From an uncultured bacterium (GTDB lineage: Bacteria; Margulisbacteria; WOR-1; CAVSGV01), in contig OY969425.1 in NCBI GenBank assembly GCA_963699255.1, positions 180,001 through 212,000 of the forward strand: a stretch of DNA of 32,000 nt, in the 5' to 3' direction. The translations under genes and the position numbers were made by a program. The notes under the pieces are model-generated. The model saw only the letters and a program-made list of their open reading frames with translations. It did no database searches and was not told the DNA's origin. This document shows, in pieces, positions 1,021 through 24,239 of this stretch (position 1 is the first letter of the stretch; every line of letters starts with the position of its first letter).

Positions 1021-1067
1021 CCCGCCTGTGTCTAAAACCCCTTCTGTCCCTCGTTAATGCTCGGGAC

Positions 1068-1092
1068 ATCTCCCCCTTAGTAAGGGGGAGAT
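1068..1092. repeat. perfect 25-nt palindrome ATCTCCCCCTTA-G-TAAGGGGGAGAT (REP-like hairpin)
   Basis: Read directly from the sequence. It has the same architecture (pyrimidine run, CCTTA-N-TAAGG, purine run) as the hairpin at 5240-5262. Confidence 0.7.
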
Positions 1093-1094
1093 AC

Positions 1095-1124
1095 AGAGGG
1101 GGTTATTAAGCCCTCTTATTCTTA
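1095..1124 (+). terminator. possible intrinsic terminator downstream of plsC
   Basis: Stem AGAGGG (1095-1100) pairs with CCCTCT (1111-1116) and is followed by the T-rich TATTCTTATTTAT. The stem is short and the T-run is interrupted. Confidence 0.35.
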
Positions 1125-1176
1125 TTTATCCGCCTTATGCCGTTTGCTGAAAGCCTTATTCTACAAGCTAAATCCC

Positions 1177-1214
1177 ATGCAAGTTTTACCCCTCTTCTTA
1201 CGAATAATACAGTG
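1177..1214 (+). promoter_or_regulatory. sigma-28-like promoter motif, copy 1
   Basis: ATGCAAGTTT-tacccctcttctta-CGAATAATACAGTG, 14 nt upstream of the ATG at 1228. It is one of six aligned copies in the window. Confidence 0.5.
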
Positions 1215-1227
1215 TAGGGGAGCTAAG

Positions 1228-1428
1228 ATGCCACAAAACGAAACTAATGGTGTACAACAGTCTCAAAATAAGCAACAGGAAAATCCTGCTGCGAAGAAAG
1301 TTATGGCAAATCAACCAAACAGAATGGCGAAGCCATCCGATGAGAGGTCGGATCAGCCGGACCTGAACATTACCGCACGGGTGGAACTTGAAGGCATGAA
1401 GCCGCCCATTGCCAACTGTATTGTCTGA
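1228..1428 (+). CDS. hypothetical protein (66 aa), no recognisable family
   Basis: The ATG at 1228 has AGGGGAG 5 nt upstream. The ORF-track TTG start at 1144 would read through the promoter-like motif, so the shorter start is preferred. The protein is Q/N/K-rich with no hydrophobic segment. Confidence 0.5.
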   Translation: MPQNETNGVQQSQNKQQENPAAKKVMANQPNRMAKPSDERSDQPDLNITARVELEGMKPPIANCIV

Positions 1429-1442
1429 GGAGCACAAAAGCA

Positions 1443-1763
1443 ATGAACGCGATAACCGGCATAAATAAACAGATAAACCCCAACCAGGGTGTTGGGGTAA
1501 ATCCGACAACACAGCCCCAGAAGAGCGAGGGCAAAACGAATAATTCAGGCATAAATTTTAACAATGTATTTGAGATCGTGAGAAGGAGCCTTGACGGGGT
1601 TATGGTGGTGGCGGAGAACAACAGGACGGGCGGCGCTGATTTCAGGAAGGAAAAGCTGGAGATAGAGGAAAAGAGGAAGTTCAAGACCGACCTTGAAGAA
1701 GCCCAGGAGATACTGAACCAGATAGCAAAGGTCATGGAAAAGCACGGCAAAGCTGTAAAGTAA
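1443..1763 (+). CDS. hypothetical protein (106 aa), no recognisable family
   Basis: Starts 14 nt after the previous stop, with GAGGAG upstream. The N-terminal half is Q/N/P/G-rich. The C-terminal half is a charged helix-like segment (EKLEIEEKRKFKTDLEEAQEILNQIAKVMEKH). Confidence 0.6.
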   Translation: MNAITGINKQINPNQGVGVNPTTQPQKSEGKTNNSGINFNNVFEIVRRSLDGVMVVAENNRTGGADFRKEKLEIEEKRKFKTDLEEAQEILNQIAKVMEKHGKAVK

Positions 1764-1769
1764 AATCGC

Positions 1770-1807
1770 ATGCAAGTTTTGTGCCGGTCGTTACGATAGA
1801 TATAGTG
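1770..1807 (+). promoter_or_regulatory. sigma-28-like promoter motif, copy 2
   Basis: ATGCAAGTTT-tgtgccggtcgtta-CGATAGATATAGTG, 37 nt upstream of the ATG at 1844. Confidence 0.55.
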
Positions 1808-1843
1808 GAAGACAAAATTATAAAAATAAGGAGGTGAAATAAT

Positions 1844-2191
1844 ATGAGTTACGGAGCAGAATACGCGACCAAGAAAACGGGGGAAAATATATTAGACAAT
1901 GCTCTTACAGTGGCAGGTGACGGAGTCGATGACATCGCGCACGTTTTGGCCGATGTTGAAGCGAACGGCGGTAAGATCAATAACGGCAACGGCCAGTCAG
2001 GGTTAACTGTTGCACATAACCATGGACTCGACACTTCGGTTCCAGAGATAGATATATCAACCGCAGCGGGAGCGATGGTTGTTGACGATTTAATGCAAAA
2101 GATCTCTACGGAAGTCCAGACTGCATCACAGATGCTATCTGCGGCGAACAATTTGACCAAGACGGCATCAAGGATATTGAGCCAGGGATAA
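1844..2191 (+). CDS. hypothetical protein (115 aa); candidate abundantly expressed structural subunit (inference only)
   Basis: Strong SD AAGGAGGTG, its own promoter motif upstream and a strong terminator downstream (monocistronic). No signal peptide. The C-terminus is amphipathic (VDDLMQKISTEVQTASQMLSAANNLTKTASRILSQG). Confidence 0.7.
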   Translation: MSYGAEYATKKTGENILDNALTVAGDGVDDIAHVLADVEANGGKINNGNGQSGLTVAHNHGLDTSVPEIDISTAAGAMVVDDLMQKISTEVQTASQMLSAANNLTKTASRILSQG

Positions 2192-2217
2192 TCTTTCCTG
2201 GGGGATTTTGACTTGAC

Positions 2218-2257
2218 AGGCGGTAGCTAAGGCAACTTAGCTGCCGCCTTTTTCTTT
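2218..2257 (+). terminator. rho-independent terminator
   Basis: A 14-bp stem, AGGCGGTAGCTAAG (2218-2231) with CTTAGCTGCCGCCT (2236-2249), includes one G-U pair. The loop is GCAA and the tail is TTTTTCTTT. Confidence 0.85.
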
Positions 2258-2267
2258 ATAAGGAATA

Positions 2268-2296
2268 CCGACAGCTTACCGCTAACGGCTTACAGC
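2268..2296. repeat. GCTAAC/ACGGC/CAGC word repeat, outer upstream copy of the four-helix-bundle cassette flank
   Basis: CCGACAGCTTACCGCTAACGGCTTACAGC shares its words (GCTAACGGC, CTTACAGC) with 2423-2490, 2853-2909 and 5691-5763. Confidence 0.6.
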
Positions 2297-2422
2297 AAAT
2301 GAATTATAAGTGTCGAAAATAGCTTCAGTTGGCGAAAGATTAATGATCTGTTCATCTAGGAGTAATCAAATTTTGTTGATTAATCAGCAAAAATCACATG
2401 GAATTGATTTGGCAAAGAAATT

Positions 2423-2490
2423 GCTGTGTTAGCTTATGGCTTACAGCTAACGGCCAACAGCTCAATAGCCGTATGCCGTAAGCTGTTAAC
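2423..2490. repeat. upstream inverted-repeat flank of the four-helix-bundle gene
   Basis: GCTGTGTTAGCTTATGGCTTACAGCTAACGGCCAACAGCTCAATAGCCGTATGCCGTAAGCTGTTAAC. GCCAACAGC is the exact reverse complement of GCTGTTGGC in the downstream flank. AGCCGTATGCC recurs at 5718-5728. Confidence 0.65.
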
Positions 2491-2510
2491 TCATACAAGG
2501 AGGATTATCC

Positions 2511-2870
2511 ATGGCTTTTAGATTTCGTAACTTTGCAGTGTATGTAAATTCCAGAAAGTTTATTAATAAGGTTTATGGAATTACAAGACAATTCCCACAA
2601 AATGAGCAATTTGGATTAACGGCTCAGCTACGAAGATCGGCGTTATCAATAGCTTTGAACATAGCTGAGGGTTCTGATAGAGGGTCTGATAGAGACTTTA
2701 ATAGATTTATTCATATGGCTATGGGTTCGATGAATGAGGTTGTTGCAGCATTAGATATTGCGTATGACAACAATAATATTCATAAGCCTTTATATGACTC
2801 AATTATTGCAGATGCTGAAATTGTGATTAAACAACTCAGCAATCTGAGCAAAAAGCTGAAAAGCCGTTAG
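2511..2870 (+). CDS. four-helix-bundle protein (23S rRNA intervening-sequence protein family)
   Basis: 119 aa with family-typical blocks FGLTAQLRRSALSIALNIAEGSDRGSDRDFNRFIHMAMGSMNEV. SD is AAGGAGG. Inverted repeats flank the gene. Confidence 0.85.
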   Translation: MAFRFRNFAVYVNSRKFINKVYGITRQFPQNEQFGLTAQLRRSALSIALNIAEGSDRGSDRDFNRFIHMAMGSMNEVVAALDIAYDNNNIHKPLYDSIIADAEIVIKQLSNLSKKLKSR

Positions 2871-2909
2871 CCTTATGCCGTTAGCTGTTTGCCGTAGGCT
2901 GTTGGCTAA
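2853..2909. repeat. downstream inverted-repeat flank of the four-helix-bundle gene
   Basis: AGCTGAAAAGCCGTTAGCCTTATGCCGTTAGCTGTTTGCCGTAGGCTGTTGGCTAA. It starts within the last codons of the gene and is partly reverse-complementary to 2423-2490. Confidence 0.6.
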
Positions 2910-2914
2910 ACTTC

Positions 2915-2951
2915 ATGCAAGTTTTCTCCATCTTCTTACGAATATATAGTG
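2915..2951 (+). promoter_or_regulatory. sigma-28-like promoter motif, copy 3
   Basis: ATGCAAGTTT-tctccatcttctta-CGAATATATAGTG, 40 nt upstream of the ATG at 2991. Its spacer closely resembles that of copy 1. Confidence 0.55.
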
Positions 2952-2990
2952 TAACCAGGATCATGAGGGATCAATAAAGGGGGAGTAAAA

Positions 2991-3299
2991 ATGGCATTCG
3001 AAGGAAATATAGCACCGGTTCAAGTTACGGAGGGATTGAATAATGTGCATTATGACGTTAAGAGGGCGCTGAGGGTCACTCAGGCCGATATAGACACGAT
3101 AATCTCTGATATGGCTGACGAAACTAAAACCACTATTACGATCGATGGAAGGACAATAAGTAAATCAGATACGGTAACCTTGCAACTCGCGGTCAGCGAC
3201 AAGATGAACAACCTTCAAAACCAGACAACCACAATACTTTCGGTATTTCAGCAAATGTACACAATGGAAAAATCACTTGGCAATTCATCTTCCGGATGA
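2991..3299 (+). CDS. hypothetical protein (102 aa), no recognisable family
   Basis: SD is AAAGGGGGAG. No signal peptide. The C-terminal half is Q/N/T-rich and helix-like (LQLAVSDKMNNLQNQTTTILSVFQQMYTMEKSL). Confidence 0.65.
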   Translation: MAFEGNIAPVQVTEGLNNVHYDVKRALRVTQADIDTIISDMADETKTTITIDGRTISKSDTVTLQLAVSDKMNNLQNQTTTILSVFQQMYTMEKSLGNSSSG

Positions 3300-3321
3300 T
3301 AATGAAGGAGCGGGATAATTA

Positions 3322-4689
3322 ATGTCTTTCGATCTCTTCGGTGGGATTTCGGAATTATCGTTGCAACAGCCGATCCAGCCTGTACAACTGCAGGCTCCGG
3401 ATGCGACGAAAATATTCCTACATTCGGGCCAAGGGGAAGACCCTGCGCAGTACCAGTCTTTCATCAAGGCGGTAAGCGATCTTGCGCAGGCATTCAAGTT
3501 CCTTCCTCAAGACGATCAGCAGTATTATCAAACCGGGACGGGCAAAGCATATTCCAATCTGGATTTTTCTCCGGATGCTTCCGACTGGAACCTCCTGACA
3601 GGCGCTGACAATCAGGGCTGCGCTGACAATTATGACAGCTCCATTCTGGACGAGATCAACAGCTACTTTAACTGGAACGATATAAAATCTATCGGAAGCG
3701 GGCAGAGCTACTATCAGATAGCTGGAAGCGGGGCGATAAGCTCATATTCGGATGAACAGGCCTTTGACCTGATGTGCTCGATGACGGAGTCAAAAGACAG
3801 GGTTTTCGGCGTTTTAAAAGAGATATTCGGCGATCCGAGCAATTTGACCGATGACAACGCGGTGATACAAAAAATTACCGATTGGCTTGGCCAGTATACC
3901 CAGGTTGATCCTCATAACCTCGGTATATTGAAGGTGTTCTTCGGGATGCAGTCGGATTTTATAGATACGCTTGATGCTTACATGAACAGCCAGACATATT
4001 GGGGGAGCAATAATACTTTCAGCGACACATTAATGACCAAGGTTGGATCATACATTTCCACCCTTACAGGGGACAAACAAACTGCGGCGGAATCATTGGA
4101 GTCAGATTGGTTAGCGCCGCCTTCCCGATGGGATACAGTGGGGGGGGTATCGGTCGATGATCTTGCCGATACCGACGGTAGCTGGGTAAAATTCTTCCAG
4201 GATAAAATGACCGAATTTGCCACAAAAGAGATCATAAGATCTGTTGTGTGCAATCTGTCGAATCTGTCGTCAAATCAAAAATACACAAAAGATAAAGCGG
4301 ACTATGAGGAAAAAAAGGACGACCTGATACAGGATGAGATCTGGCTCCAGAGGATGCAGGCAAAGGCTCTCGCGGAATCCAAAAGATTCCTTCAGAAACT
4401 TCTTGGCAGAAAGAAAAGCCTTTCAGTGTCAGGCAGAGGAAGATCAAGTTCTGTTGGGGCAAGGGGCAGGTCGACCGGCGCGGGAGTAAAGGCTGTTGCC
4501 AGGCCGTCCAAGCCTGTTATAAGAGCGGCTGCGAGATCGGTCGTAGGACCTACAATAAGGTCATTAGTTGGCGCTAAAGCAAGGAGCGCGGCAGCGTCAA
4601 GCGCTCGAAGCAGCAGTGTTGCGTCGAGATCGCCGAACCAAGCCGTTCAGGCCAAGAAAAATCCAAGAGACGAGAAAAAGGTGATATAA
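3322..4689 (+). CDS. hypothetical protein (455 aa) with Arg/Ser/Ala-rich basic C-terminal tail
   Basis: SD is GAAGGAG. The acidic, aromatic-rich body is followed by ~90 aa of low-complexity basic sequence (RGRSSSVGARGRSTGAGVKAVARPSKPVIRAAARSVVGPTIRSLVGAKARSAAASSARSSS). A G8 tract lies at 4140-4147. Confidence 0.7.
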   Translation: MSFDLFGGISELSLQQPIQPVQLQAPDATKIFLHSGQGEDPAQYQSFIKAVSDLAQAFKFLPQDDQQYYQTGTGKAYSNLDFSPDASDWNLLTGADNQGCADNYDSSILDEINSYFNWNDIKSIGSGQSYYQIAGSGAISSYSDEQAFDLMCSMTESKDRVFGVLKEIFGDPSNLTDDNAVIQKITDWLGQYTQVDPHNLGILKVFFGMQSDFIDTLDAYMNSQTYWGSNNTFSDTLMTKVGSYISTLTGDKQTAAESLESDWLAPPSRWDTVGGVSVDDLADTDGSWVKFFQDKMTEFATKEIIRSVVCNLSNLSSNQKYTKDKADYEEKKDDLIQDEIWLQRMQAKALAESKRFLQKLLGRKKSLSVSGRGRSSSVGARGRSTGAGVKAVARPSKPVIRAAARSVVGPTIRSLVGAKARSAAASSARSSSVASRSPNQAVQAKKNPRDEKKVI

Positions 4690-4690
4690 A

Positions 4691-5185
4691 ATGGGCGCTG
4701 AATTTTCAACCAACTTAGGATTAGCCAATAGCGCCACCAAGCAATACGCGATAGCCAAGCAGGCCCAGCCGAATAATAAGAAGGTGGGGGATGAATCTTC
4801 TCTTACAACGGAGAAAGGCGGCGTGTACGGTGAAAAGCTTGTGGACATGGCGAATCCGAGCATAGATGAGTATGTCACCGCTCTTGCCACGCAGGATGAG
4901 GCCTCCAAGGCCAGGAAAAAATACAAGCCTACGGTAGAATCGCTGCAAGAACGCCTGGAAGGGGCGCTCGAACAACGTTACGATAATGCCCACAACATGC
5001 TTGCCGAAGCGTTTTACGGGTTCCAGGTAAGCACCTGCAACTCCCTGCTTGGGCTGCTTGGCGCAGATCCGGCAGATCTGGAAGCCATCAGGAAGAAAGC
5101 GTACGAGCAGGCAAAAGGCAAAGTACAGGCAGGGTATGAAAGGCTGGCAACCGCTTACGCGGAATACGAGATTTACGCCTCATAA
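4691..5185 (+). CDS. hypothetical protein (164 aa), no recognisable family
   Basis: The ATG lies 1 nt after the upstream stop (TAAAATG), with AAGGTG upstream, so it is probably translationally coupled. The composition is helical and charged. Confidence 0.65.
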   Translation: MGAEFSTNLGLANSATKQYAIAKQAQPNNKKVGDESSLTTEKGGVYGEKLVDMANPSIDEYVTALATQDEASKARKKYKPTVESLQERLEGALEQRYDNAHNMLAEAFYGFQVSTCNSLLGLLGADPADLEAIRKKAYEQAKGKVQAGYERLATAYAEYEIYAS

Positions 5186-5239
5186 ACCTATCCCCGGTTT
5201 GATTACTGTCATTATCTACTAGTTTTAGTTGTGCGACTG

Positions 5240-5262
5240 CCCTCTCCTTACTAAGGAGAGGG
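5240..5262. repeat. REP-like hairpin CCCTCTCCTTA-C-TAAGGAGAGGG
   Basis: Perfect 11-nt arms read directly from the sequence. The design matches 1068-1092. No T-run follows. Confidence 0.65.
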
Positions 5263-5278
5263 GTGAAGAGGTGAGGTG

Positions 5279-5287
5279 TGATATAAT
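5279..5287 (+). promoter_or_regulatory. extended -10 element TGATATAAT, possible leaderless promoter for ORF 5294
   Basis: TGnTATAAT ends 6 nt before the A of the ATG at 5294. No SD lies at a usable distance. Confidence 0.3.
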
Positions 5288-5293
5288 TGAGCT

Positions 5294-5689
5294 ATGGCCA
5301 GCAACAAGCGCAAAAAAGCTCAACAGAGGATCTTAAGCGAGGTCAAGAGCCAGCTGCATATAAAAGCCAAAAAGCTCGGAATTGAGTATAATTTTTCCGA
5401 TCTTAATTTTGAGACAATGAAACTGGATGCCGCTAGACGCATACTGGACGACCTTAACTCCGAAAAATCCAATCTTGAATATGAGCTGTACATGAAGGGC
5501 ATCCTGGACAAGGAAAGCACCATAAAACTTGAGAAGATACAGACCTATATAAGTAAGGCTCAAAGGGTCATCGGCAAATACGAAAAAACCATCGGTAAGA
5601 TCGCTGAAAAGGCCGCCCCTAACAAGGAAAAGACCAGGGAAGCGGTCAAGAAAATCACCATAACCCCGAAAATATCAGTACACAGATAA
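5294..5689 (+). CDS. hypothetical basic coiled-coil-like protein (131 aa)
   Basis: Lys-rich with heptad-like composition (MASNKRKKAQQRILSEVKSQLHIKAKKLG...). No family recognised. Confidence 0.55.
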   Translation: MASNKRKKAQQRILSEVKSQLHIKAKKLGIEYNFSDLNFETMKLDAARRILDDLNSEKSNLEYELYMKGILDKESTIKLEKIQTYISKAQRVIGKYEKTIGKIAEKAAPNKEKTREAVKKITITPKISVHR

Positions 5690-5690
5690 G

Positions 5691-5763
5691 CAAACAGCAT
5701 ACGGCTAACAGCTAAAAAGCCGTATGCCTTAGCCCGCAGGGCGTGCCGTGAGTTGTTAGCTAA
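5691..5763. repeat. solo copy of the cassette-flank repeat, containing a 10-bp hairpin
   Basis: CAAACAGCATACGGCTAACAGCTAAAAAGCCGTATGCCTTAGCCC...GTTGTTAGCTAA. GCATACGGCT (5697-5706) pairs perfectly with AGCCGTATGC (5718-5727). It shares words with 2423-2490 and 2853-2909, but no four-helix-bundle gene is present here. Confidence 0.6.
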
Positions 5764-5766
5764 TCC

Positions 5767-5805
5767 ATGCAAGTTTTTGGCTTCAAAACACGATAATATA
5801 TACGG
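5767..5805 (+). promoter_or_regulatory. sigma-28-like promoter motif, copy 4
   Basis: ATGCAAGTTT-ttggcttcaaaaca-CGATAATATATACGG, 49 nt upstream of the ATG at 5854. Confidence 0.55.
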
Positions 5806-5853
5806 AACAGGGTATAAGAATATCAGGGTATCAACGTATCAGAGGAGAGAGAA

Positions 5854-8847
5854 ATGGTAATAAGTACCGATCAAATAAACCAGACAAAAAATTCAAACAA
5901 ATCCGAAGACTCCGATAATTCTGCTGTTGCCAAGGAACTGAGGAAGATAGAACAGCTTAAACGGCTTCAGCAGCAGCAAATGGACACGAAATCTTACGAC
6001 AAACTGATCAACGATGCAAAGCATCTTGAAACATTAAACAACGAGAAAGGATATCAGGCAAAACTACAGAAAGATCAGGGAATAAAGGTCCTCTCAAGAT
6101 TAGCAAAAGACCTGGCAGGCCTCGGGATAAACCTAACACCCAATTCGCTAAAAAAATCTTCGACCGGCAAGGTCAACGAGGAACTTGAAAATATATTCAA
6201 CAAGACGCTCTTTAAAGAAGACAAGAGTGAAATAACAAAGGAAGCCGTTAAGAGATCGCAGAACAAGGAAGAACAGCAGGGTGAACAGGAGCATCAATCG
6301 GAGAAAAGGGCGGATATCAAAAACCTGTTGAACTCTTTAGACGTGCAGGAAGCCGTTCAGCAGTATTCAAGCGCTTATGCGCAGGAAGCCCTTCAATCAA
6401 ACCCGCAGGCAAGAGAAAAGCTGGCGGAGGCGCAGGACAAGTTAATAAAGAAAGGTTTTTCCGAAAAGGATGTAGAAATACTCGAGAAATCCGTAAAGAG
6501 GTCATTGGACACTGAATTTGTTTCCAGGATCCAGGATAGCTTCATTCAGCAAATATTTTCTCCAAAGAACGCCTTTCAGCTTGTCGCGTCGGAAGAATCC
6601 GGCGGCCTTTTTGGAAAGGTCGTTGAAGAAGACGCCAATAAAATAAGGGACAACTTAACAAAAGAAAACATCAAGATAACGCAGAACGGGGAGGAGAAAA
6701 AATCGAAGCAGCTGGAGGATCAAGAGAAAAATGCGGATATCAACAGGCTGGCGAATTCTTCTGCCGCGAAAGAAGATATCCAGCAGTATTCGAACGCTTA
6801 TGCGCAGTATGCCGCTGCGTCATCCCCGGAAGCGAAAGAGAAGCTGGAGGACGTGCAGGACAGGTTAAGGCAGAAAGGCTTTTCCGAAAAGGACATTGAG
6901 ATACTTGAAAAGGCCGTAAAAAGATCTTTGAGCACCGATGGTGTCTCCAAGAATCAGGATGACCTTACCCAGCACATGTTCTCGCAAAAGAGCGTCTTTC
7001 AGGTCGGCCTGGAAACGGAAAGCCTTAATGGAATGTTCGAAAGGATCGGCAAGGAAAGCCGCTTGGAAGCGAAGGAAAACTCAACCAAAGAAGATGTCAG
7101 GCAAATGCAGGGCGGAGAGGAGAAAAAAACAAAGCAGCTGGAGGATCAGCAGAAAAAAACGGATATCAACAAGCCGTCAGACTCTTCTGCCGCGAAAGAC
7201 GTTGTCCAGCAGTATTCGAACGCATACGCACAGTTTGCCGCCGTGTCATCCCCGCAAGCCAGGGAAAATCTGGACTACGCGCAGAACAGGTTAAGAGAGA
7301 AAGGATTTTCTGAGAAAGACATCGTTGTACTCAATAAAGTCGTGAAGAGATCTTTGAATGCCGGGCACGCTCCCGAACTCCAGGACAAGGATGCATTTTC
7401 TCCGAAGAACGCTTTCCAGCTTATTGTGGCGTCAAAGGAGCTTGGCGGCATTTTTGAAAGGATCATCAAAGAAAATAACGATAAAGTGGAAGATAGATCA
7501 ACAAAGGGAGAGGGCAAAAGCGCCCATGGCTTGGATAGGAAAGGGAAGGAGCATGTTGGCTCCAGAGAAGATAAAGCGGACATAAAAAAGTCTGATAGCT
7601 CTTCCGATGTGAAAGAGGCTGTTCAGCAGTATTCGGCCGCTTTTGCGCAGAGTGCTGTCTCGGCATCCCCGGAAGCCAGGGAGAGACTGGACGATGCCAG
7701 GAACAAGCTGAAAAGCAAAGGCGTTTCCGAAAAGGACATTATTAGCATCGAAAGGACCGTAAAAAGATCTTTAAGAACGGACTATTCCTCCGAGATCAAG
7801 GACAGCCTTACAAAACACATGTTCTCTCCAAAGAACACTTTCGAGTTCGTTGTTACCTCAAGGCAGCTGAACAACGCGTTTGAGGGGGCGATCAAGGCTG
7901 AACAACTCTCGGGCGTGAGCGGCGACCAGCAGGTAGTGAACGATCAAATGGCGCGTGCCGGCGAAGCATCCCGCGAGGAAATTAAGGATTTCATAAAGGA
8001 CGCGGTTGAATCCAAACTTATGGAGCGCCACATTTCCAACAGGAACAACAGGAATGAGGTAAAAAAACTGGTTGATCTGGGCCATAAGGTAGGGTTCAAT
8101 TTCAATGAATTCCTCAAAACATGGGAGAGTAAAAAGTTCGATCTGGGCCTGTTCGTTCTTGAGATCGAAAACACGTACAAGGCGCAAAACACGGGTGAAA
8201 TTTCCATAGGGGAGGTCAGCACCGGCGGGGTGAAGGACAAGAACGGCTACGAGATGACGAAGGACGAAGAACGAGAGCTTTTGATCAACCAGCTGAGGGC
8301 GGAGCTCATGAAAAAAGCCATAACCGGGGATCCTTTCGCGGTGTTCAGTTTCGCTCCGAAGATAAGAAAGCTGAAGAACGGGCTCATAAAGCTGGGGCTT
8401 GAGACGGAAGCTTTTAACAAGATAGAGAAAGAAGCGAAAGCGCTTGCAAGGTACAGGACCCTGGAGATGCTTAAGGGCGCGTTCCTGGAGAGGTCGACCT
8501 ATTACGAACTTTCAGGCCCGGCATATAATCTGCTCAAGAACAAGCAAAAGGGCCTTGTTTCCAACCTTAAGAACCTTGACCTGGAATTCTCGAAAGAGGA
8601 GCTTAACATGTTAAGGGATGACGCGAACAGGCAGATGCACGACCACGCGATAATCGAGCTGAAATCCGCCGTGGCTATCCTTGCAAACGGGGATAATCCG
8701 ACACTTGAAGAGAAAGTTCCATTGATGATCAAGCTAATACAGCGTCTCAGGGAGGAATCAGATTTCAGCCACGGGGTGGGCGAAGATCTGGATGAAGTGA
8801 TATACAGGTATAATAACGGCCAAAAAGCGGTCAAGGAGCACGCCTAA
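5854..8847 (+). CDS. large hypothetical protein (997 aa) with four ~140-aa internal repeats
   Basis: SD is AGAGGAGAG. The protein is highly charged (K/E/Q-rich) with no signal peptide or TM segment. Repeats share QQYSxAYAQxAxxSxPxAxExLxxAQxxLxxKGFSEKDIxxLxKxVKRSL. Confidence 0.8.
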   Translation: MVISTDQINQTKNSNKSEDSDNSAVAKELRKIEQLKRLQQQQMDTKSYDKLINDAKHLETLNNEKGYQAKLQKDQGIKVLSRLAKDLAGLGINLTPNSLKKSSTGKVNEELENIFNKTLFKEDKSEITKEAVKRSQNKEEQQGEQEHQSEKRADIKNLLNSLDVQEAVQQYSSAYAQEALQSNPQAREKLAEAQDKLIKKGFSEKDVEILEKSVKRSLDTEFVSRIQDSFIQQIFSPKNAFQLVASEESGGLFGKVVEEDANKIRDNLTKENIKITQNGEEKKSKQLEDQEKNADINRLANSSAAKEDIQQYSNAYAQYAAASSPEAKEKLEDVQDRLRQKGFSEKDIEILEKAVKRSLSTDGVSKNQDDLTQHMFSQKSVFQVGLETESLNGMFERIGKESRLEAKENSTKEDVRQMQGGEEKKTKQLEDQQKKTDINKPSDSSAAKDVVQQYSNAYAQFAAVSSPQARENLDYAQNRLREKGFSEKDIVVLNKVVKRSLNAGHAPELQDKDAFSPKNAFQLIVASKELGGIFERIIKENNDKVEDRSTKGEGKSAHGLDRKGKEHVGSREDKADIKKSDSSSDVKEAVQQYSAAFAQSAVSASPEARERLDDARNKLKSKGVSEKDIISIERTVKRSLRTDYSSEIKDSLTKHMFSPKNTFEFVVTSRQLNNAFEGAIKAEQLSGVSGDQQVVNDQMARAGEASREEIKDFIKDAVESKLMERHISNRNNRNEVKKLVDLGHKVGFNFNEFLKTWESKKFDLGLFVLEIENTYKAQNTGEISIGEVSTGGVKDKNGYEMTKDEERELLINQLRAELMKKAITGDPFAVFSFAPKIRKLKNGLIKLGLETEAFNKIEKEAKALARYRTLEMLKGAFLERSTYYELSGPAYNLLKNKQKGLVSNLKNLDLEFSKEELNMLRDDANRQMHDHAIIELKSAVAILANGDNPTLEEKVPLMIKLIQRLREESDFSHGVGEDLDEVIYRYNNGQKAVKEHA
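6301..7900 (+). repeat. four tandem coding repeats of ~417-426 bp inside ORF 5854-8847
   Basis: Repeat starts (xADIxx) lie at about 6301, 6724, 7150 and 7567. Divergent at nucleotide level but clearly alignable at protein level. Confidence 0.8.
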
Positions 8848-8860
8848 AGCATGAAAAAGC

Positions 8861-8898
8861 ATGCAATTTTTGGCTGTTTTTTACGATATATATATAGG
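8861..8898 (+). promoter_or_regulatory. sigma-28-like promoter motif, copy 5
   Basis: ATGCAATTTT-tggctgtttttta-CGATATATATATAGG (13-nt spacer, G to T in the -35 block), 21 nt upstream of the ATG at 8919. Confidence 0.45.
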
Positions 8899-8918
8899 AA
8901 GGGGTAGGGGGAAATTAT

Positions 8919-10217
8919 ATGGCAGACCAGACTATAAATAATACACAACCGGCAAGACAGCCGATAAATCTGTTGCCGATGGCTCCTAGGGGCAAGAATG
9001 TTCAGGTCCAGTCTAATGAACAGTTATCCGGGAAGACAGAGCTTGCAACATCCTATATTGTGACTATTTCCACTGCCGCAAACAAAGAGCCCGAACAGGA
9101 AAATACTATTAAGGTCATAATTTCAAGCGTGGGAGGATGGTTTTCAAAAGCTGGAAAAACTATGGCAAATTGGGCGGGTGGCGCATGGGATGCGATCTCC
9201 GGCCTGTTTAACAAGGTAGGGAAGGCGGAAGAAGAAATAGATAAGGCACAAAGGGAAGGCGACAATAACAAGGCCGAGGAATTAGCAAAAGAATGCTTAA
9301 AGAACGATGTCGGAGCTGCAAATGTTGATGAAATGAGCGGGGAAGAAGCGATCGCGTTTGTAGAAAAGATCGATGATATCCACGAAAAAATGGATGCGGC
9401 AATAGTGGCTGTGAACAGGGGTGAGTTCACAAAGTTAAAGGTTGAACTTGAAAATATACTTGCTGAGCTTAAGGGTGTGAAGGAAAAGGCAAAAATTCCT
9501 GAGCAGGCTCAATTCAAAATAACTGCTGCTGTTAAAGTGTCCAACGAGGGAACCAATTTCTTTGTTGAAAAGATTAAAATAGAAGTTGAAGATATCAACA
9601 AGCAGGGCAGATCACCAGAGAGCGAGAAAAAAATAAATGAATTAAATAATCAATTGGTGGCAATAACTATGCCAGATCGATCCATAAAAGAAAGTTTGCT
9701 GGCCCTTCAGATATCTGCGGAAGCAATAGCCGGGATAGACGAAAATATCGGCAAAGCAGGGGAAGTTGCTGCAGAGATCATTCAGGTTGCTGCGGTAAAA
9801 GGATATAAGCTTGATAACTTCGCTCAACTTGCGAGCATAGCCGGGGTCGGGAGCGGAGATGCGGTTGAGAGCGATGAAGAAATCGGAGTTGTTGATGGTG
9901 CTCAGCTGGCAAGGAACTTTCATCCCATATCCAACGATCTTACGGAAAAGGTGGTCACGATGTTGCGCGAGAACAGAGAGGAACAGGACAGGCTTGATAA
10001 CAAGGCTTACGAAAAAAAAGAACTGGAAGTTCAAATGGAAAATAAGCAAGACGAAAAACAATATCTGGTAAAGATCGCTGAAAAAAGAAGGCAGCTTGGT
10101 AAATTACAAAAACAGCTGGAACAGATCATTAAGCCCGACCTGGCAGAGCAAGAAAAGATTAATAATATCATTGGCCAGATCATTGAAAATATCAATAAAC
10201 CCACGCCCTTAACTTAG
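8919..10217 (+). CDS. hypothetical protein (432 aa), no recognisable family
   Basis: G-rich SD (GGGGTAGGGGG). A Gly/Trp-rich amphipathic segment (GGWFSKAGKTMANWAGGAWDAISGLF) is followed by long charged helix-like regions. Confidence 0.7.
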   Translation: MADQTINNTQPARQPINLLPMAPRGKNVQVQSNEQLSGKTELATSYIVTISTAANKEPEQENTIKVIISSVGGWFSKAGKTMANWAGGAWDAISGLFNKVGKAEEEIDKAQREGDNNKAEELAKECLKNDVGAANVDEMSGEEAIAFVEKIDDIHEKMDAAIVAVNRGEFTKLKVELENILAELKGVKEKAKIPEQAQFKITAAVKVSNEGTNFFVEKIKIEVEDINKQGRSPESEKKINELNNQLVAITMPDRSIKESLLALQISAEAIAGIDENIGKAGEVAAEIIQVAAVKGYKLDNFAQLASIAGVGSGDAVESDEEIGVVDGAQLARNFHPISNDLTEKVVTMLRENREEQDRLDNKAYEKKELEVQMENKQDEKQYLVKIAEKRRQLGKLQKQLEQIIKPDLAEQEKINNIIGQIIENINKPTPLT

Positions 10218-10272: not shown

Positions 10273-11481
10273 TCAGGAGAATAGGCCCTCTAGGGCTGCC
10301 CAGTACATGGTGGCGTTTTGTATCGAAAATCTTTCCTTAACGGCATCATAAGCGTTCTGCCCGATCCGCTTTCTTAGATCGGGGTCCAGCAGTTTTTCCA
10401 GGTAAGTTCCCCATTCGCCCTGATGGGCAATGAACCCGGTTTTCCCGTGTTCAATATAATTCCCATAGACAATAGGGGAGCAAACAGACGGGACTTTCAT
10501 CGCGCTCATTTCTTCCCACTTGAGAGGCGATTTTCCGTAATTGAAAGCATCATCAGTTAAAGGGCATATGGCTATGTCTCCCGAAAGTTCTGTCAACGAT
10601 AAAGGATAGGTGTTTATGTCAGAGTGCCAGGGGGACCATGTAACCCTGTCACTTATTTCGTGGAATATCGCGGGAAAGTTCACACCCTGGAACACATATT
10701 CAACTTCCGGGTGCTTTTTCGCAAAAGATATCAATTCCTGTTTCACCATTGTAAGGTCAATGTAGTGGGATGCTCCTCCCTGCCATACTACTCTCAGTTT
10801 TCCGTCATTCTTTTTCTTCATCGGGAGGAACCTGTCAAAGTCCACAAGGTTTGGCAGGACAGTTATCCCGCCCTCGGGGCGATATTTCCTTAATTCATCC
10901 TTCAGCTGCGGGGTGGCCACTGTTATGAGGTCGACTTCTTGAATGATCTTTTGCACTGTCATTAGCGTCAATTGATTGGCTGCAATGTTAAACGTTTCCC
11001 GCGCGCCTCCCCACAAAAAAGTTCTGTGCTTATCTTTCCAAATGGAAACTGTCGCGGACCCGTCCGGATCCATGCGAAAAAGTTCTTTATCTCTCTCCTG
11101 GATCGTGGGCATCAGGATATCCACTTGTTGCTTGCTTAAATGCAGATTACCCACTTCTTTAGTGCCGAGCATGCAATATGAGGGGTTCCAGGGGCAAACA
11201 TTAAAAATGTCATCATCAAAATCCGCCACTACTTTTTGGGACTTTTCTCGCCCGCGCTTGATCGCCTTGAGTAATTTATAGTGATTCTGGGTGGTCGGAT
11301 AAGATTGAATAACTATATCAGCCTGCTTGATTTCATTAGCAAGCTGTTCTTTATCAGGATGATCCAGGTCATATATGGATATGTCTTTGCCTAGAATGTT
11401 CTTTAAATAGCCATATGGCTGTACTATGCGATAATATTCATGCGCTAAACTCTTATCTAATGATAAAGCAATGACTTTCAT
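10273..11481 (-). CDS. GT-B fold glycosyltransferase-like protein (paralog B)
   Basis: 402 aa. The C-terminal half (KSPLKWEEMSAMKVPSVCSPIVYGNYIEHGKTGFIA...RIGQNAYDAVKERFS) resembles the nucleotide-sugar-binding half of GT-B enzymes. The family is not assignable by eye. Its ATG overlaps the upstream stop (ATGA). Confidence 0.5.
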   Translation of the reverse strand: MKVIALSLDKSLAHEYYRIVQPYGYLKNILGKDISIYDLDHPDKEQLANEIKQADIVIQSYPTTQNHYKLLKAIKRGREKSQKVVADFDDDIFNVCPWNPSYCMLGTKEVGNLHLSKQQVDILMPTIQERDKELFRMDPDGSATVSIWKDKHRTFLWGGARETFNIAANQLTLMTVQKIIQEVDLITVATPQLKDELRKYRPEGGITVLPNLVDFDRFLPMKKKNDGKLRVVWQGGASHYIDLTMVKQELISFAKKHPEVEYVFQGVNFPAIFHEISDRVTWSPWHSDINTYPLSLTELSGDIAICPLTDDAFNYGKSPLKWEEMSAMKVPSVCSPIVYGNYIEHGKTGFIAHQGEWGTYLEKLLDPDLRKRIGQNAYDAVKERFSIQNATMYWAALEGLFS

Positions 11482-12689
11482 AATAAACTAATATCCTCAA
11501 GGGCCGCCCAGTACATAGCGGCGTTTTGTATCGAAAATCTTTCCTTAACGTCATCATAAGCATTTTGCCCGATCTGCCTTCTTAGATCAGGGTCCAGCAG
11601 TTTTTCCAGGCAAGTTCCCCATTCGCCCTGACGGGCAATGAACCCGGTCTTTCCATGTTCAATAAAGTTGCCGTAGACAATAGGGGAGCAAACAGACGGG
11701 ACTTTCATCGCGCTCATTTCTTCCCATTTGAGAGGGGACTTTCCGTAATTGAAAGCATCATCAGTTAAAGGGCATATCGCGATATCCCCTGCGAGTTCTG
11801 TCAACGATAAAGGATAGGTGTTAATGTCCGAGTGCCAGGGAAGCCAAGTAACCCTATCTGCAATTTCATGAAATATCGCCGGGAGCTTCGTACCCTGGAA
11901 CACATATTCAACTTCCGGATGCTTCCTGGCAAAAGAGATCAATTCCTGTTTCACCATTGTAAGGTCAAGATAGTGAGCTGACGGCCCCTGCCACACGATC
12001 CTCAGCTTCCCGTCGTTCTTTTTTTTCATCGGGAGGAACCTGCCAAAGTCCACAAGGTTTGGCAGGATGGTTATCCTGCCCTGGGGGCGATATTTCCTTA
12101 ATTCCTCAGCGAATTGCGGGGTAGCCGCTGTTATAAGGTCGACTTCCCGCATGATCTTTTTTATGGTCTCCAGCCTTGCCAGGTTCTCCGCGATGTCAAA
12201 CCTATCCCCATCTTCACCCCACAAGAACGATCTGTGCTTATCTTTCCACATGTAAGCGTTCGCCGATCCATCCGGGTTCATTTGAAACAGTTGTTTATCG
12301 TCTTCCCTGATCGAAGGCATCAGGTCGTCAACTTGTTTCCTGTCCAAATGTAGATTGCCCACCTCTTTGGTCCCAAGCAAGGCATAAGAGCAATGCCAGG
12401 GGCACACATTGAACGGGTCATCGTCAAAATCCGCAACGACTCTTTGCTTTTTATCTTTTCTGCCCATGATCGCTTTGATCAGCCTGTATTGATCATGCGT
12501 GTATGGCTCGTGGAAAACTACCACATCAGCCAGTTTAACCTCATTGCCAAGCTGTTCTTTATCAGGATGATCCAGGTCATATATGGATATGTCTTTGCCT
12601 AGAACGTTCTTAAGGTAGCCATAGGGTTGAAGTATCCGGTAAAATACTTTTGGCGAATTCTTTTCTATTAATAAAACAATTATCTTCAT
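11478..12689 (-). CDS. GT-B fold glycosyltransferase-like protein (paralog A)
   Basis: 403 aa, collinear with and highly similar to the downstream paralog, with long identical stretches in the C-terminal half. Confidence 0.5.
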   Translation of the reverse strand: MKIIVLLIEKNSPKVFYRILQPYGYLKNVLGKDISIYDLDHPDKEQLGNEVKLADVVVFHEPYTHDQYRLIKAIMGRKDKKQRVVADFDDDPFNVCPWHCSYALLGTKEVGNLHLDRKQVDDLMPSIREDDKQLFQMNPDGSANAYMWKDKHRSFLWGEDGDRFDIAENLARLETIKKIMREVDLITAATPQFAEELRKYRPQGRITILPNLVDFGRFLPMKKKNDGKLRIVWQGPSAHYLDLTMVKQELISFARKHPEVEYVFQGTKLPAIFHEIADRVTWLPWHSDINTYPLSLTELAGDIAICPLTDDAFNYGKSPLKWEEMSAMKVPSVCSPIVYGNFIEHGKTGFIARQGEWGTCLEKLLDPDLRRQIGQNAYDDVKERFSIQNAAMYWAALEDISLL

Positions 12690-12723: not shown

Positions 12724-13359
12724 TCAATAATATCCCGTTCCTTTTATCCTTTTCTCGCCAAGATGCGCCGTGCTGTTCAGCAGCGTCACTATCGGGGCGT
12801 TGCCTATTTCAATGATATTGATGCAGGTATTGTCCTGCCTTATGCGCCAGAAATTGTTCAGGTCAATGTGCATATAATGGAAAAGAACTCCCCTGTTCAA
12901 TCCGCCGTGGCCGACAACGCAGAAGGTCTTTCCGCTGTGTTTTTCGATCAGAGATTCGATAGTCGTTACGCCCCGTTTTTGCATTTCCTCAAGGCTTTCT
13001 GCGTCCGGAATGAGCGTCTTTCCCGGGTCTATGAGCCAGCCTCCGTATAGGGCGGGATATTTTCTGCGGATCTCGTCGAATTTCATGTCTTCCCAGATGC
13101 CGTAATCGCGTTCTATTAGACCGGAGATCTTTGTGACATCCAGTCCGTGCGGTTTTGCGATGATCTTAGCCGTTTCGTATGACCGTGATAGCGTGGATGA
13201 ATATATCGCGGAGAAATCCTCTTTGGCCAGGAAATCCGAAAGCGCCTCCGATTCTTCTATGCCGAGCTCGCTTAGATGCGATTCTCCCTGTCCCTGGTAG
13301 CGCTGCTCAAGATTCGCCTGGGTCTCACCGTGGCGAAGGAGGAAAAGTCTAGTGGGCAT
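12724..13359 (-). CDS. histidine phosphatase (phosphoglycerate mutase-like) family protein
   Basis: The N-terminal RHGET catalytic motif (LFLLRHGETQANLEQRYQG) and a later GHGG block are typical of the GpmB/CobC-type family. Confidence 0.8.
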   Translation of the reverse strand: MPTRLFLLRHGETQANLEQRYQGQGESHLSELGIEESEALSDFLAKEDFSAIYSSTLSRSYETAKIIAKPHGLDVTKISGLIERDYGIWEDMKFDEIRRKYPALYGGWLIDPGKTLIPDAESLEEMQKRGVTTIESLIEKHSGKTFCVVGHGGLNRGVLFHYMHIDLNNFWRIRQDNTCINIIEIGNAPIVTLLNSTAHLGEKRIKGTGYY

Positions 13360-13372
13360 ATATCAACTCGCT

Positions 13373-15160: not shown

Positions 15161-15189
15161 AAGTTACAAACCTCCTGTTAATATTAAAT

Positions 15190-15274
15190 GGATTGAGATA
15201 AGAGATTTGAGATCGGAGATCAGAAAAAAGAATATATCTCTACTCCACTCTCTAATCTCTATTCTCTAATCTCC
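15190..15274. repeat. long imperfect palindrome with a purine-rich arm and a pyrimidine-rich arm (GAGAT / ATCTC words)
   Basis: The arm GGATTGAGATAAGAGATTTGAGATCGGAGATCAG faces ATCTCTACTCCACTCTCTAATCTCTATTCTCTAATCTCC. It fills the hisA-pckG intergenic gap. Confidence 0.6.
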
Positions 15275-15286
15275 AGTTATTAGATT

Positions 15287-16638: not shown

Positions 16639-16661
16639 CACCCCTTCGATCCGGCGTAATA

Positions 16662-23105: not shown

Positions 23106-23143
23106 ATGCAAGTTTGATCCCCCATAACCCGATTATATAAGTG
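23106..23143 (+). promoter_or_regulatory. sigma-28-like promoter motif, copy 6
   Basis: ATGCAAGTTT-gatcccccataacc-CGATTATATAAGTG, 89 nt upstream of the ATG at 23232. A small CCCCG-GAAAG-CGGGG hairpin lies in the leader. Confidence 0.5.
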
Positions 23144-23231: not shown

Positions 23232-24239
23232 ATGAGGAATACGGTTCTAAAGTTAACATTTTTAGCGGTATCATTGGTAATATTGATGATATCCGCATCC
23301 TTTGCTGATGACGGCTCAGTCAACGCACCCTCGGTAGACATAACAGAAGTAGGGATGGGAGCGCGCCCGATAGCGCTTGGGGGAGCATACACGGGCCTTG
23401 CTGATGACGCATCGGCCATATTCACGAATCCGGCAGGGCTTGCCAGGCAGAACAGCCTCTCTTTTGTAAGCATGAGTTCACAGATATTGAACACCGTAGA
23501 CTACAAGCTGATCGGATTTTCATATCCGACGCAATACGGTCATTTAGGGATCGGATATGTTGGGGCATCAACACCGGCAGGCTCACATATATATTATGTA
23601 GGGGGAGTAACAACCGAAGGCGGAGCAATGGATTATACGAACCAGATGTTCATCCTCTCATATGGTAAAGATATCAGCGAGCAAGTCGGGGTAGGGGCTA
23701 ACGTAAAGTTTCTTTCACAGGGGCTTTCGGGGAGCATAAGCAATGCACCGACCGCAAGCGGAATGGAGCTGGACCTTGGGGCGATGTATGCACCGACCAG
23801 CAGGTTGACCGTTGGAGCCACACTTCAAAATGTGGCTGGATCGCTTGATTGGTCCACCGGGGAGAAAGAAACGCTTCCCAGGCTGTTCAAGCTGGGATGT
23901 TCATATAAAGCTATTGAAAATGTGCTGGTCGCGCTGGACACGGACTTCGACCTGGACGGAGGAAGGGATATGGTGGCACACGGCGGAGCCGAATGGCAGG
24001 TAATACCACTTCTCGCGCTGAGGGCCGGGATCGACCAGAAAGCGGCGTCGATCGACGAGGGGACCACAGGGACATCAACGAATTATCTGCTTGGCATAGG
24101 CCTTACGCTGGACGGGTTCAGGTTCGATTACGCGTACAGGCAGGATCCTAATTTTTCTGAGCTATCAACGCATTATTTCTCGATCTGTTACACGGGCGGT
24201 CCTGAGGAGCCGGTAAAACAGGCATCGGAAATAATATAA
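23232..24239 (+). CDS. outer-membrane beta-barrel protein, PorV/PorQ-like (or FadL-like)
   Basis: Start moved to ATG 23232 (SD AGGGGGGAG). Signal peptide MRNTVLKLTFLAVSLVILMISASFA. The N-terminal block GARPIALGGAYTGLADDASAIFTNPAGLA is typical of the PorV/PorQ and FadL-type barrel families. The rest shows an alternating beta-strand pattern. Confidence 0.55.
   Translation: MRNTVLKLTFLAVSLVILMISASFADDGSVNAPSVDITEVGMGARPIALGGAYTGLADDASAIFTNPAGLARQNSLSFVSMSSQILNTVDYKLIGFSYPTQYGHLGIGYVGASTPAGSHIYYVGGVTTEGGAMDYTNQMFILSYGKDISEQVGVGANVKFLSQGLSGSISNAPTASGMELDLGAMYAPTSRLTVGATLQNVAGSLDWSTGEKETLPRLFKLGCSYKAIENVLVALDTDFDLDGGRDMVAHGGAEWQVIPLLALRAGIDQKAASIDEGTTGTSTNYLLGIGLTLDGFRFDYAYRQDPNFSELSTHYFSICYTGGPEEPVKQASEII

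Follow-up and report, generated by a model that had tools for sequence, protein, structure and literature searches.

Promoters of the sigma-28 class (FliA/SigD/WhiG) head the class 3 genes of the flagellar system, and in Escherichia coli their consensus is TAAAGTTT-N11-GCCGATAA. In Campylobacter jejuni, FedA-D, CiaI and FlaC are sigma-28-dependent, non-flagellar proteins that are exported through the flagellum, and in Chlamydiae the sigma-28 regulon includes the late gene hctB, which encodes a histone-like protein. Buchnera aphidicola has reduced, filament-less basal bodies that are thought to act as exporters, and a transition from flagellum to injectisome is also known. Here we describe a promoter motif, and the nine-gene cluster that it heads, in a 32,000-nucleotide (nt) stretch of DNA (the window; positions 180,001 to 212,000 of contig OY969425.1, assembly GCA_963699255.1) from an uncultured WOR-1 bacterium of the phylum Candidatus Margulisiibacteriota. 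The reading we lean towards is that the motif is a FliA promoter and the cluster the 'late' sigma-28 class of a remodelled flagellar system, which would probably consist of export substrates and their helpers. What would be new is a sigma-28-type late regulon with entirely novel content.

Each of these systems resembles the present one in some respects and departs from it in others. The C. jejuni proteins are alike in being small, signal-less, without flagellar homology and co-regulated with late genes by sigma-28, but they accompany a complete rotating flagellum, whereas the Margulisiibacteriota set appears to replace the late class and forms a phylum-wide cluster. Buchnera and the injectisome transition share with it the kept export gate, ATPase, MS ring, rod and hook genes, and an annotated gene set without filament, junction or cap in which the rotor/switch is partly missing. 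Here, by contrast, the L/P rings and FliA have been retained, FliG survives in shortened form and there is a large, conserved sigma-28-type regulon of new proteins; unlike in the injectisome transition, no secretin or needle genes were seen. Chlamydiae likewise use a FliA-family sigma factor for non-flagellar genes, and one target here, the protein P5, has a long basic tail; however, Chlamydiae have no flagellar basal body, their small regulon is tied to the developmental cycle, and there is no sequence similarity to the set described here.

A conserved promoter-like motif

The first-pass annotation of the window had listed five plus-strand copies of CATGCAAGTTT-N13/14-CGAWW, at 1177, 1770, 2915, 5767 and 8861, each in a gap 14-49 nt 5' of a start codon with a Shine-Dalgarno sequence, and all five were found where it had placed them. 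A sixth copy (23106-23135, + strand), absent from that list, lies beyond the nine-gene cluster and brings the total for the window to six, all on the + strand and all intergenic. The strict pattern ATGCAAKTTT-N13/14-CGAWWA has four matches in the window, where 100 shuffles that preserve dinucleotides give an expectation of 0.00; the copies at 1770 (CGATAG) and 8861 (ATGCAATTTT, spacer 13) are one-base variants outside this pattern, just as the annotation had described them. The motif is real and beyond chance. Aligned, the copies share a block C-ATGCAAGTTT-T, a 13-nt spacer, (T)ACGAWW and then an ATATA-like stretch (..ATA..TG), and this conserved block extends further than first reported. The six copies are as follows, with the nine genes of the cluster named P1 to P9 and loci outside the window given L numbers.

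1176..1216, + strand: promoter copy 1, CATGCAAGTTTT-N13-CGAATAATACAGTG; heads the P1-P2 unit; orthologous copies at L003:7866 and L005:6287
1769..1809, + strand: promoter copy 2; heads P3; seen in the motif alignment, with copies in relatives
2914..2953, + strand: promoter copy 3; heads the P4-P5-P6 unit; seen in the motif alignment, with copies in relatives
5766..5806, + strand: promoter copy 4; heads P8; copies in relatives
8860..8900, + strand: promoter copy 5, the ATGCAATTTT variant with a spacer one base shorter; heads P9
23105..23145, + strand: promoter copy 6; outside the cluster; heads a PorV/PorQ-family gene

The resemblance to sigma-28 promoters that the first-pass annotation had seen in the AAGTTT and CGATAA blocks extends to both boxes, to the two-box architecture and to the fixed spacer, as well as to the heading of many short units of non-Sec proteins. 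Against the consensus box TAAAGTTT, the −35 sequence GCAAGTTT matches at six of eight positions: AAGTTT is kept, GC replaces TA, and an upstream CAT is also conserved, such that the block is extended to CATGCAAGTTTT. In the −10 box, CGA stands in every copy of the window and its relatives, followed by T (102 of 109) and A (89 of 109), and the GC that precedes CGA in the sigma-28 consensus is TA or CC here. The arrangement is AAGTTT-N14-CGATAA, compared with AAGTTT-N13-CGATAA in E. coli; the distance from GTTT to CGA is 14 nt in all but one of the six window copies, and that one has 13 nt, the E. coli value.

It is highly improbable that the upstream block is instead an activator site overlapping the −35 region, with the housekeeping sigma factor reading an AT-rich −10. 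At 12 nt the conserved block is above normal −35 size, and GATAAT/TAATAT within CGATAATAT does resemble a sigma-70 −10 with a G at −14. However, the C-G-A seen in every copy here and in relatives is not part of a sigma-70 −10, the block lacks the dyad symmetry typical of activator sites, and the fixed 13-nt spacer together with the joint likeness to sigma-28 is more simply explained by a dedicated sigma factor.

Distribution and placement of the motif

Two collection-wide scans, one of one genome per species and one of metagenomes, used the pattern CATGCAAGTTTT-N13-CGAWWNWWW, in which the CGA triplet is fixed and the next bases are free to be A or T. The motif occurs at at least 117 genome loci and at least 120 metagenome loci. 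Judged by record titles, 101 of the 117 listed genome loci belong to Candidatus Margulisiibacteriota, Saganbacteria, candidate division WOR-1, Candidatus Termititenax, marine single cells or unlabelled metagenome-assembled genomes (MAGs), and the approximately 16 others are scattered, consistent with chance. A single MAG holds at least 10 strict copies, and relatives with proteins no more than 37-62% identical still have the motif in the orthologous gaps. The motif is a property of the phylum Candidatus Margulisiibacteriota.

Its placement is that of a promoter. The first-pass annotation had asked whether the motif is equally frequent inside genes, and it is not: 4 of 110 copies fall inside open reading frames (ORFs) of at least 120 amino acids (aa), whereas 85% of positions drawn at random from the same loci do. 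For 77 of the 110 copies, a co-oriented ORF of this minimum size begins no more than 250 nt downstream, and most of the others precede small ORFs. Positions left free by the pattern are also conserved, with C at +15 (83/109), T at +37 (93/109) and G at +38 (78/109). This pyrimidine-purine T-G pair lies 10-11 nt after CGA and about 8 nt after CGATAA, where a start is expected, and on that ground is likely to be the transcription start.

We also considered, and rejected, the motif as the housekeeping promoter. In the same window (24846-24900), groES/groEL are preceded by a TTGACA-N17-TATAAT promoter that overlaps a CIRCE-like inverted repeat, TTAGCACTC-N9-GATTGCTAA. As groES thus has a canonical sigma-70-type promoter, the primary sigma factor works from canonical promoters, which puts the motif in a different class. 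An Rfam scan of the whole window gave no match. Placement and conservation support the earlier proposal that the motif acts as an alternative-sigma-class promoter, and it is well supported that this class, distinct from housekeeping promoters and phylum-wide, heads the present cluster and many genes of unknown function. The accompanying idea of a regulon 'dedicated' to this cluster did not hold, as the motif is found across the phylum and also heads giant proteins, a PorV-family protein and surface proteins. A full-text literature search (Margulisbacteria or Saganbacteria with flagella or sigma factor) returned no description of the motif, the cluster or a reduced flagellar gene set.

The nine-gene cluster

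The cluster is the motif's main hot spot, with about 27 of about 220 motif loci lying in it. Its nine ORFs have the sizes first given (66, 106, 115, 102, 455, 164, 131, 997 and 432 aa); the first-pass annotation had overlooked the four-helix-bundle gene, the terminator after P3 and the promoter-like element of P7. The features of the region are these:

1228..1428, + strand: P1, 66 aa; no known family; polar, Q/N-rich
1443..1763, + strand: P2, 106 aa, isoelectric point (pI) 9.3; by its sequence, a polar N-terminal half and a charged C-terminal half
1844..2191, + strand: P3, 115 aa, acidic; own promoter, strong Shine-Dalgarno sequence AAGGAGGTGA and own terminator
2218..2259, + strand: intrinsic-terminator-like hairpin of 14 pairs followed by a T run, after P3
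2511..2870, + strand: gene for a 23S rRNA intervening-sequence four-helix-bundle protein (Pfam E 5e-30); inserted, outside the regulon
2991..3299, + strand: P4, 102 aa, acidic; weak homologue in the Saganbacteria locus L043
3322..4689, + strand: P5, 455 aa; all-alpha core, long helix and variable basic R/K/A/S/P tail
4691..5185, + strand: P6, 164 aa, acidic; 72-84% identical among close relatives
5279..5293, + strand: extended −10-like element of P7, TGaTATAAT (5279-5287), 6 nt before the P7 ATG
5294..5689, + strand: P7, 131 aa, pI 9.9; phylum-wide, with an invariant NLEYE
5854..8847, + strand: P8, 997 aa; four internal repeats about 140 aa apart and a conserved all-alpha C-terminal module
8919..10217, + strand: P9, 432 aa, acidic; 26-33% identity in L003, L007, L075, L161 and L234

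In the contigs that carry P5 homologues the cluster is complete, with gene order and chromosomal location unchanged, and is flanked by a giant protein and an acyltransferase upstream and by a histidine phosphatase and PEPCK downstream. When the window proteins were compared by tblastn with the motif loci, the order P3-P4-P5-P6-P7-P8-P9 proved to be kept in many lineages with motif copies interleaved; carriers include Termititenax persephonae (L068), a marine single cell (L075), Saganbacteria (L029, L043, L063, L065), WOR-1 (L045) and many unlabelled contigs. More distant lineages have an extra gene of about 360 aa between P7 and P8. A prophage or other mobile element was rejected as an explanation, as the synteny does not vary and no credible PHROG match was obtained.

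Of the six transcription units in the cluster, the motif heads five; the remaining one, P7, has what appears to be its own leaderless sigma-70-type start. P7 begins without a Shine-Dalgarno sequence, and the extended −10 before it is kept in L003 (11940-11964) and L005 (9950-9973) and is looser in L007 (ATATAATAAT), a pattern which suggests that P7 may be translated from a leaderless mRNA made from a sigma-70-type promoter within the motif-driven cluster. Two similar G/C-rich hairpins, CTCCCCCTTAGTAAGGGGGAG and CCCTCTCCTTACTAAGGAGAGGG (window 1060-1100 and 5240-5266), stand just 5' of transcription-unit starts, and a related one is present in L003.

Searches of the nine proteins against Pfam (E <= 1), NCBIfam and PHROG returned no match and no flagellar family, in agreement with the first reading, which had recognised no family among them; they are not recognisable as flagellar or phage proteins. 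Profile searches of the PDB with the P5, P8 and P7 families gave nothing below E 0.07. AlphaFold2 models of P5 and of the P8 C-terminal module (predicted local distance difference test scores of 59 and 75) are both all-alpha helical bundles. Foldseek comparison of these models with the PDB gave as its best matches a pore-forming toxin (E 0.5) and alpha-catenin (E 0.045), which at TM-scores of 0.09-0.15 were rejected as real matches.

The individual proteins nevertheless have distinctive features. P5 has 18 metagenomic homologues at 36-62% identity, and the tail of the family (residues ~365-455 in P5) is disordered, varies from 90 to 200 aa and ends in a conserved KDEKKVI. The P8 family is well defined: an exhaustive profile search of 1.84 billion proteins yielded 281 representatives at 50% identity. 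In this unannotated library the 150 best matches, which are those listed, are all strong ones to the P8 family itself, with no link to a known family. Most P8 homologues are about 550 aa long and usually have one repeat unit. In the window the repeats (6225-7774) are about 420 nt apart and 63-79% identical in DNA, and copy number varies by species. P3 is tandemly duplicated in L007, and conservation of its last 50 aa reaches as far as Termititenax. For P2, for which no homology was found, place and size would fit an anti-sigma (FlgM-like) role.

The 23S rRNA intervening-sequence gene within the cluster looks like an insertion. It is at the same site in L003 and L007 and absent from L005 and a JGI contig. 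It sits amid low-complexity repeats of the GCTAACGGC/GCCGTTAGC type (2281-2299, 2432-2464 and 2870-2905), which also occur at 5697-5715.

Around the cluster, no secretion machine or regulator was seen in 12 distant loci, which have only GT2, TPR and housekeeping genes beside it. The right-hand neighbours in the window (12724-16785), namely histidine phosphatase, GTP-dependent PEPCK, HisF and HisH, recur in L075 (3481-7409), a synteny between the source genome and a marine single cell that is unusually deep. Between the cluster and these genes (10273-12689, − strand) lie two tandem paralogues of 402 and 403 aa, which share up to 90% identity over 300 nt and have only a faint glycosyltransferase-like signal; they are not at this position in L003 or L007, and a 68% identical homologue adjoins the cluster in L161. 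Further right, at 19465-22017, is an ORF of 850 aa that matches no family; it has tandem repeats of 48 nt (19957-20196) as well as several internal repeats of greater length.

Products of motif-driven genes

About a dozen of the 102 first-downstream ORFs across the phylum have any Pfam domain; those found are beta-helix, cadherin-like, Big_9, YkuD, transglutaminase, SH3, EF-hand, DUF4116 and type IX sorting-like domains. No housekeeping, flagellar or sigma gene was detected by Pfam as the first ORF behind any of these 102 copies, nor were the late flagellar genes in particular (flagellin, hook-associated, FlgM). Most of the products (86 of 102) begin without a hydrophobic segment. Against 204 control ORFs from the same loci, residues 2-25 of these signal-less proteins hold more N (+0.88 log2), Q, T, P and S and less L (−0.94), H, M, F, R and E. 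Type III secretion signals are reported to be biased in this direction. The bias is compatible with an export signal without being specific to one, and would also fit any disordered N-terminus.

The copy outside the cluster heads an outer-membrane protein gene, and PorV-like genes recur behind the motif at other loci. The features there are:

23232..24239, + strand: PorV/PorQ-family outer-membrane protein behind promoter copy 6 (NF033709, 102.6 bits, cutoff 90)
22045-22953 and 24263-24757: two proteins with a type IX sorting domain (Por_Secre_tail, TIGR04183), flanking the PorV/PorQ-family gene

The two flanking, cargo-like genes are paralogues, 80% identical over 300 nt. To our knowledge, type IX secretion is usually described outside Margulisiibacteriota. 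The motif also lies 5' of the gene for a 2620-aa giant protein (copy at L002:1932) and of the giant gene in relatives. This protein (L002:1983-9845), encoded just left of the window, has as its sole match a transglutaminase core near the N-terminus, and relatives have one or two giant genes at the same place.

A FliA-like sigma factor and a flagellar operon in the source genome

A FliA-like gene was found in L172 by a probe search of the metagenome loci, and a protein-collection search with that sigma factor found P0231, a 245-aa FliA/WhiG-like protein 67% identical to it and encoded on the same 1,770,855-bp contig as the window proteins. The best NCBIfam family for P0231 is FliA_WhiG (E 2.9e-39, 135 bits), followed by the unrelated family SigBFG (SigB/F/G) at 86 bits. 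The first-pass annotation had made its proposal depend on a group-3 sigma factor in the genome, and the divergent P0231 answers to that description. Its remark that no flagellar gene is present stands for the window but not for the genome, which has a flagellar basal-body/type III export operon elsewhere.

This operon surrounds the sigma factor gene. In L245, the P0231 neighbourhood, which comes from the same sample as the other contigs of the source organism, the order is flhB-like, flgF, flgG, flgA, panD, flgH-flgI fusion, a 90-aa unknown, fliA (P0231), flgB, flgC, fliE, fliF, fliG remnant, fliH, fliI and fliJ. There is no copy of the motif in L245, and a sigma-70-like promoter, TTGATT-N17-TATAAT, precedes flgF. 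As in the classical sigma-28 flagellar system, then, a FliA-family gene lies within a basal-body operon whose promoter is sigma-70-like. The fliG gene (8475-8985) encodes 130 aa that cover the N-terminal 40-45% of FliG models without the C-terminal domain, which in other bacteria bears the torque-generating surface. About 42 further FliG-like residues in another frame before fliH point to a frameshift or a decaying gene, with the C-terminal domain missing either way. Within the operon (L245:2885-4881), a panD-like aspartate decarboxylase gene stands between flgA and flgH, and FlgH and FlgI are called as a single 552-aa fusion protein.

The motif itself is found beside such an operon elsewhere. 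In L172 it drives a 413-aa unknown protein and a gene resembling the FlhB C-terminus, directly 5' of the flagellar operon; after the FlhB-like gene comes TTGATT-N17-TATAAT and then flgF-flgG-flgA-flgH-flgI-fliA-flgB-flgC-fliE-fliF. The 413-aa gene is motif-driven too in L176, where the FlhB-like gene is next, and in L181, where the contig ends within the gene. Encoded at L172:9166-10407, L176:10867-12150 and L181:1-1164, the protein has a Q/A/P-rich N-terminus; no homology was found for it, and its position and composition would suit a hook-length-control (FliK-like) role. Regular-expression and tblastn searches for sigma factors and flagellin in the first 117 genome loci gave no match, and tblastn for sigma genes in the motif loci detected only those of L172 (FliA) and L139 (ECF, or extracytoplasmic function, type), the latter on the opposite strand and without the motif. 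Because both boxes are similar, a FliA is present in the genome, the promoters form a hierarchy and motif-driven genes adjoin the flagellar operon, we think it probable, on these sequence comparisons, that a FliA-family sigma factor reads the motif.

Another alternative sigma factor, for example of the ECF type, could read it instead, in which case the regulon would serve the cell envelope or surface and have nothing to do with the flagellar apparatus. ECF promoters have AAC at −35, CGT at −10 and a spacer of 16-17, as in the Bacillus subtilis sigma-M (TGCAAC-N17-CGTG) and sigma-W (TGAAAC-N16-CGTA) promoters, and TGCAAG-N17-CGA is alike in spacing, in its CG-type −10 and in the T-rich stretch past −35. 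The annotated members of the regulon are indeed envelope or surface proteins (PorV family, type IX sorting neighbours, YkuD, beta-helix, cadherin-like and transglutaminase-like), and the L139 ECF sigma gene is 3.5 kb from a motif copy. However, the −35 box has AAG rather than AAC, and the −10 is CGAT(A/T), the sigma-28 signature, rather than CGT. ECF sigma factors are usually autoregulated, yet no sigma gene, and no autoregulated sigma/anti-sigma pair, comes first behind any of the 102 motif copies; neither AAC, nor CGT, nor a downstream sigma gene was thus found. The L139 gene has no motif upstream, and the motif is physically tied to the flagellar operon in at least two contigs. On this balance we regard an ECF-type reader as distinctly unlikely.

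The apparently missing late genes

In Supplementary Data 2 of Matheus Carnevali et al. (2019), FliA (K02405) is recorded in nearly all Margulisbacteria and Saganbacteria genomes, and Saganbacteria have FlhA/B, FliP/Q/R, export ATPase partners, FliF, rod, L/P rings, FlgE, FliN and FliA (PMC6349859). No FliG, FliM, FliK, FlgK, FlgL, FliD, FlgM, FlgN, FliS or FliT is listed there for Saganbacteria or marine Margulisbacteria genomes; the flagellin and FliS rows are empty in all 46 genomes, and FliT in nearly all, which makes these rows uninformative (PMC6349859). The absence calls of the table are not fully reliable, as FliG is listed as absent and yet a remnant was found in L245. Two genomes of the table, METM01 and METP01, carry the motif (L016, L070 and L072).

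Our own searches bear on the same question. Flagellin (FliC) and FlgK probes gave no tblastn match in about 1.7 Mb around motif copies, whereas rod, ring, FliF/MS-ring, FlgC and FliA proteins of these organisms are recognised at E 1e-20 to 1e-110. Because the basal-body proteins are recognised and yet the FliC and FlgK probes find none, the canonical sigma-28 targets seem to be missing rather than merely diverged. In this respect the system differs from class 3 flagellar regulons: no flagellin, FlgK/L, FliD, FlgM or chemoreceptor was found among more than 200 downstream genes.

It is improbable that the cluster is nevertheless an ordinary flagellar late set (FlgM, FlgN, FlgK, FlgL, flagellin, FliD, FliS) that has diverged beyond recognition. 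Gene number and sizes are roughly like those of flgMN, flgKL and fliDST, the promoters are sigma-28-like, and KEGG-based absence calls can miss divergent genes, as FliG illustrates. Set against this, beside the ready recognition of the basal-body proteins and the empty FliC/FlgK probes, none of the nine proteins matches flagellin, Flg_bb_rod, FliD, FlgM or FliS even at Pfam E <= 1, P5 ends in a disordered basic tail rather than the terminal helix of an axial protein, and the P8 C-terminal model matches no solved flagellar protein.

A further possibility is that the nine proteins stay in the cytoplasm, where they would make up or regulate an internal structure (cytoskeletal, nucleoid-associated or storage) that is turned on as a developmental stage, with the chlamydial sigma-28/hctB pair as a parallel. 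They have no signal peptide or transmembrane segment, two are modelled as helical bundles, the 90-200-aa R/K/A/S/P tail of P5 is of the polyanion-binding kind, P7 is very basic, and no secretion-machine gene adjoins the cluster in any lineage examined. But the bias of the polar N-termini runs the way reported for type III signals, and the same promoter drives genes beside the export operon. Moreover, the full export gate, ATPase, rod, rings and hook are kept while the usual exported late proteins are unseen, and an apparatus kept without them needs substrates. We consider a purely cytoplasmic role unlikely.

Discussion

The model that we favour is a regulatory hierarchy in which sigma-70 would drive the basal body and FliA, and FliA would in turn act on the motif promoters of the late genes. 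A FliA (sigma-28) family sigma factor of Candidatus Margulisiibacteriota would read CATGCAAGTTTT as its −35 box and CGATAA/T as its −10 box. The late class would be a phylum-wide set of unknown proteins with the nine-gene cluster as its conserved core, and the cluster proteins would build or decorate whatever replaced the filament. As for their specific functions, there is something close to an even chance, going by gene content and composition, that they take the place of the lost late class by supplying the flagellar-type export apparatus with substrates, chaperones and perhaps an anti-sigma analogue. The suggestion in the first-pass annotation that the cluster could encode a filament, an appendage or a set of exported substrates gains some plausibility as a conjecture. 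A bolder and more doubtful extension is that in Saganbacteria and related Margulisiibacteriota the flagellum has turned into a non-rotating type III export organelle that retains the hierarchy from sigma-70 to FliA, and whose FliA late class, with the nine-gene cluster at its centre, would encode an entirely new distal structure or effector set. Loss of rotation is suggested here because FliG lacks the torque domain and FliM, hook-associated proteins and the cap are not annotated in the clade.

Several observations weigh against this model. The spacer is one nucleotide longer than in the E. coli sigma-28 consensus, the −35 box CATGCAAG reaches beyond the known sigma-28 −35 box, and TGCAAG-N17-CGA resembles ECF sigma promoters too. 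The 135 bits of P0231 fall below the curated FliA_WhiG cutoff of 189.6. Both modelled cluster proteins (P5 and the P8 module) are plain helical bundles without an informative match, and the Sec-dependent surface proteins in the regulon (PorV, beta-helix, cadherin-like, L,D-transpeptidase) fit an envelope regulon equally well. Finally, a flagellin row that is blank across 46 genomes is an unreliable row (PMC6349859).

The motif is a regulatory signal that can be read straight from DNA in an uncultivated phylum: one short sequence marks dozens of transcription units per genome, the products of which are almost all of unknown function. It ties these proteins to a flagellar-type export apparatus that appears without its rotor domain and usual exported parts, and so raises the questions of what cargo a filament-less flagellar basal body might carry and how the flagellum gains new functions in evolution. 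For expression, structure determination and imaging, P0231 and the nine conserved proteins offer concrete starting points. If the export organelle is real, it would represent a flagellar exaptation independent of the injectisome, in the sister phylum of Cyanobacteria; even if the idea of export is wrong, the regulon would be the largest coherent, co-regulated set of 'dark' genes in Margulisbacteria.

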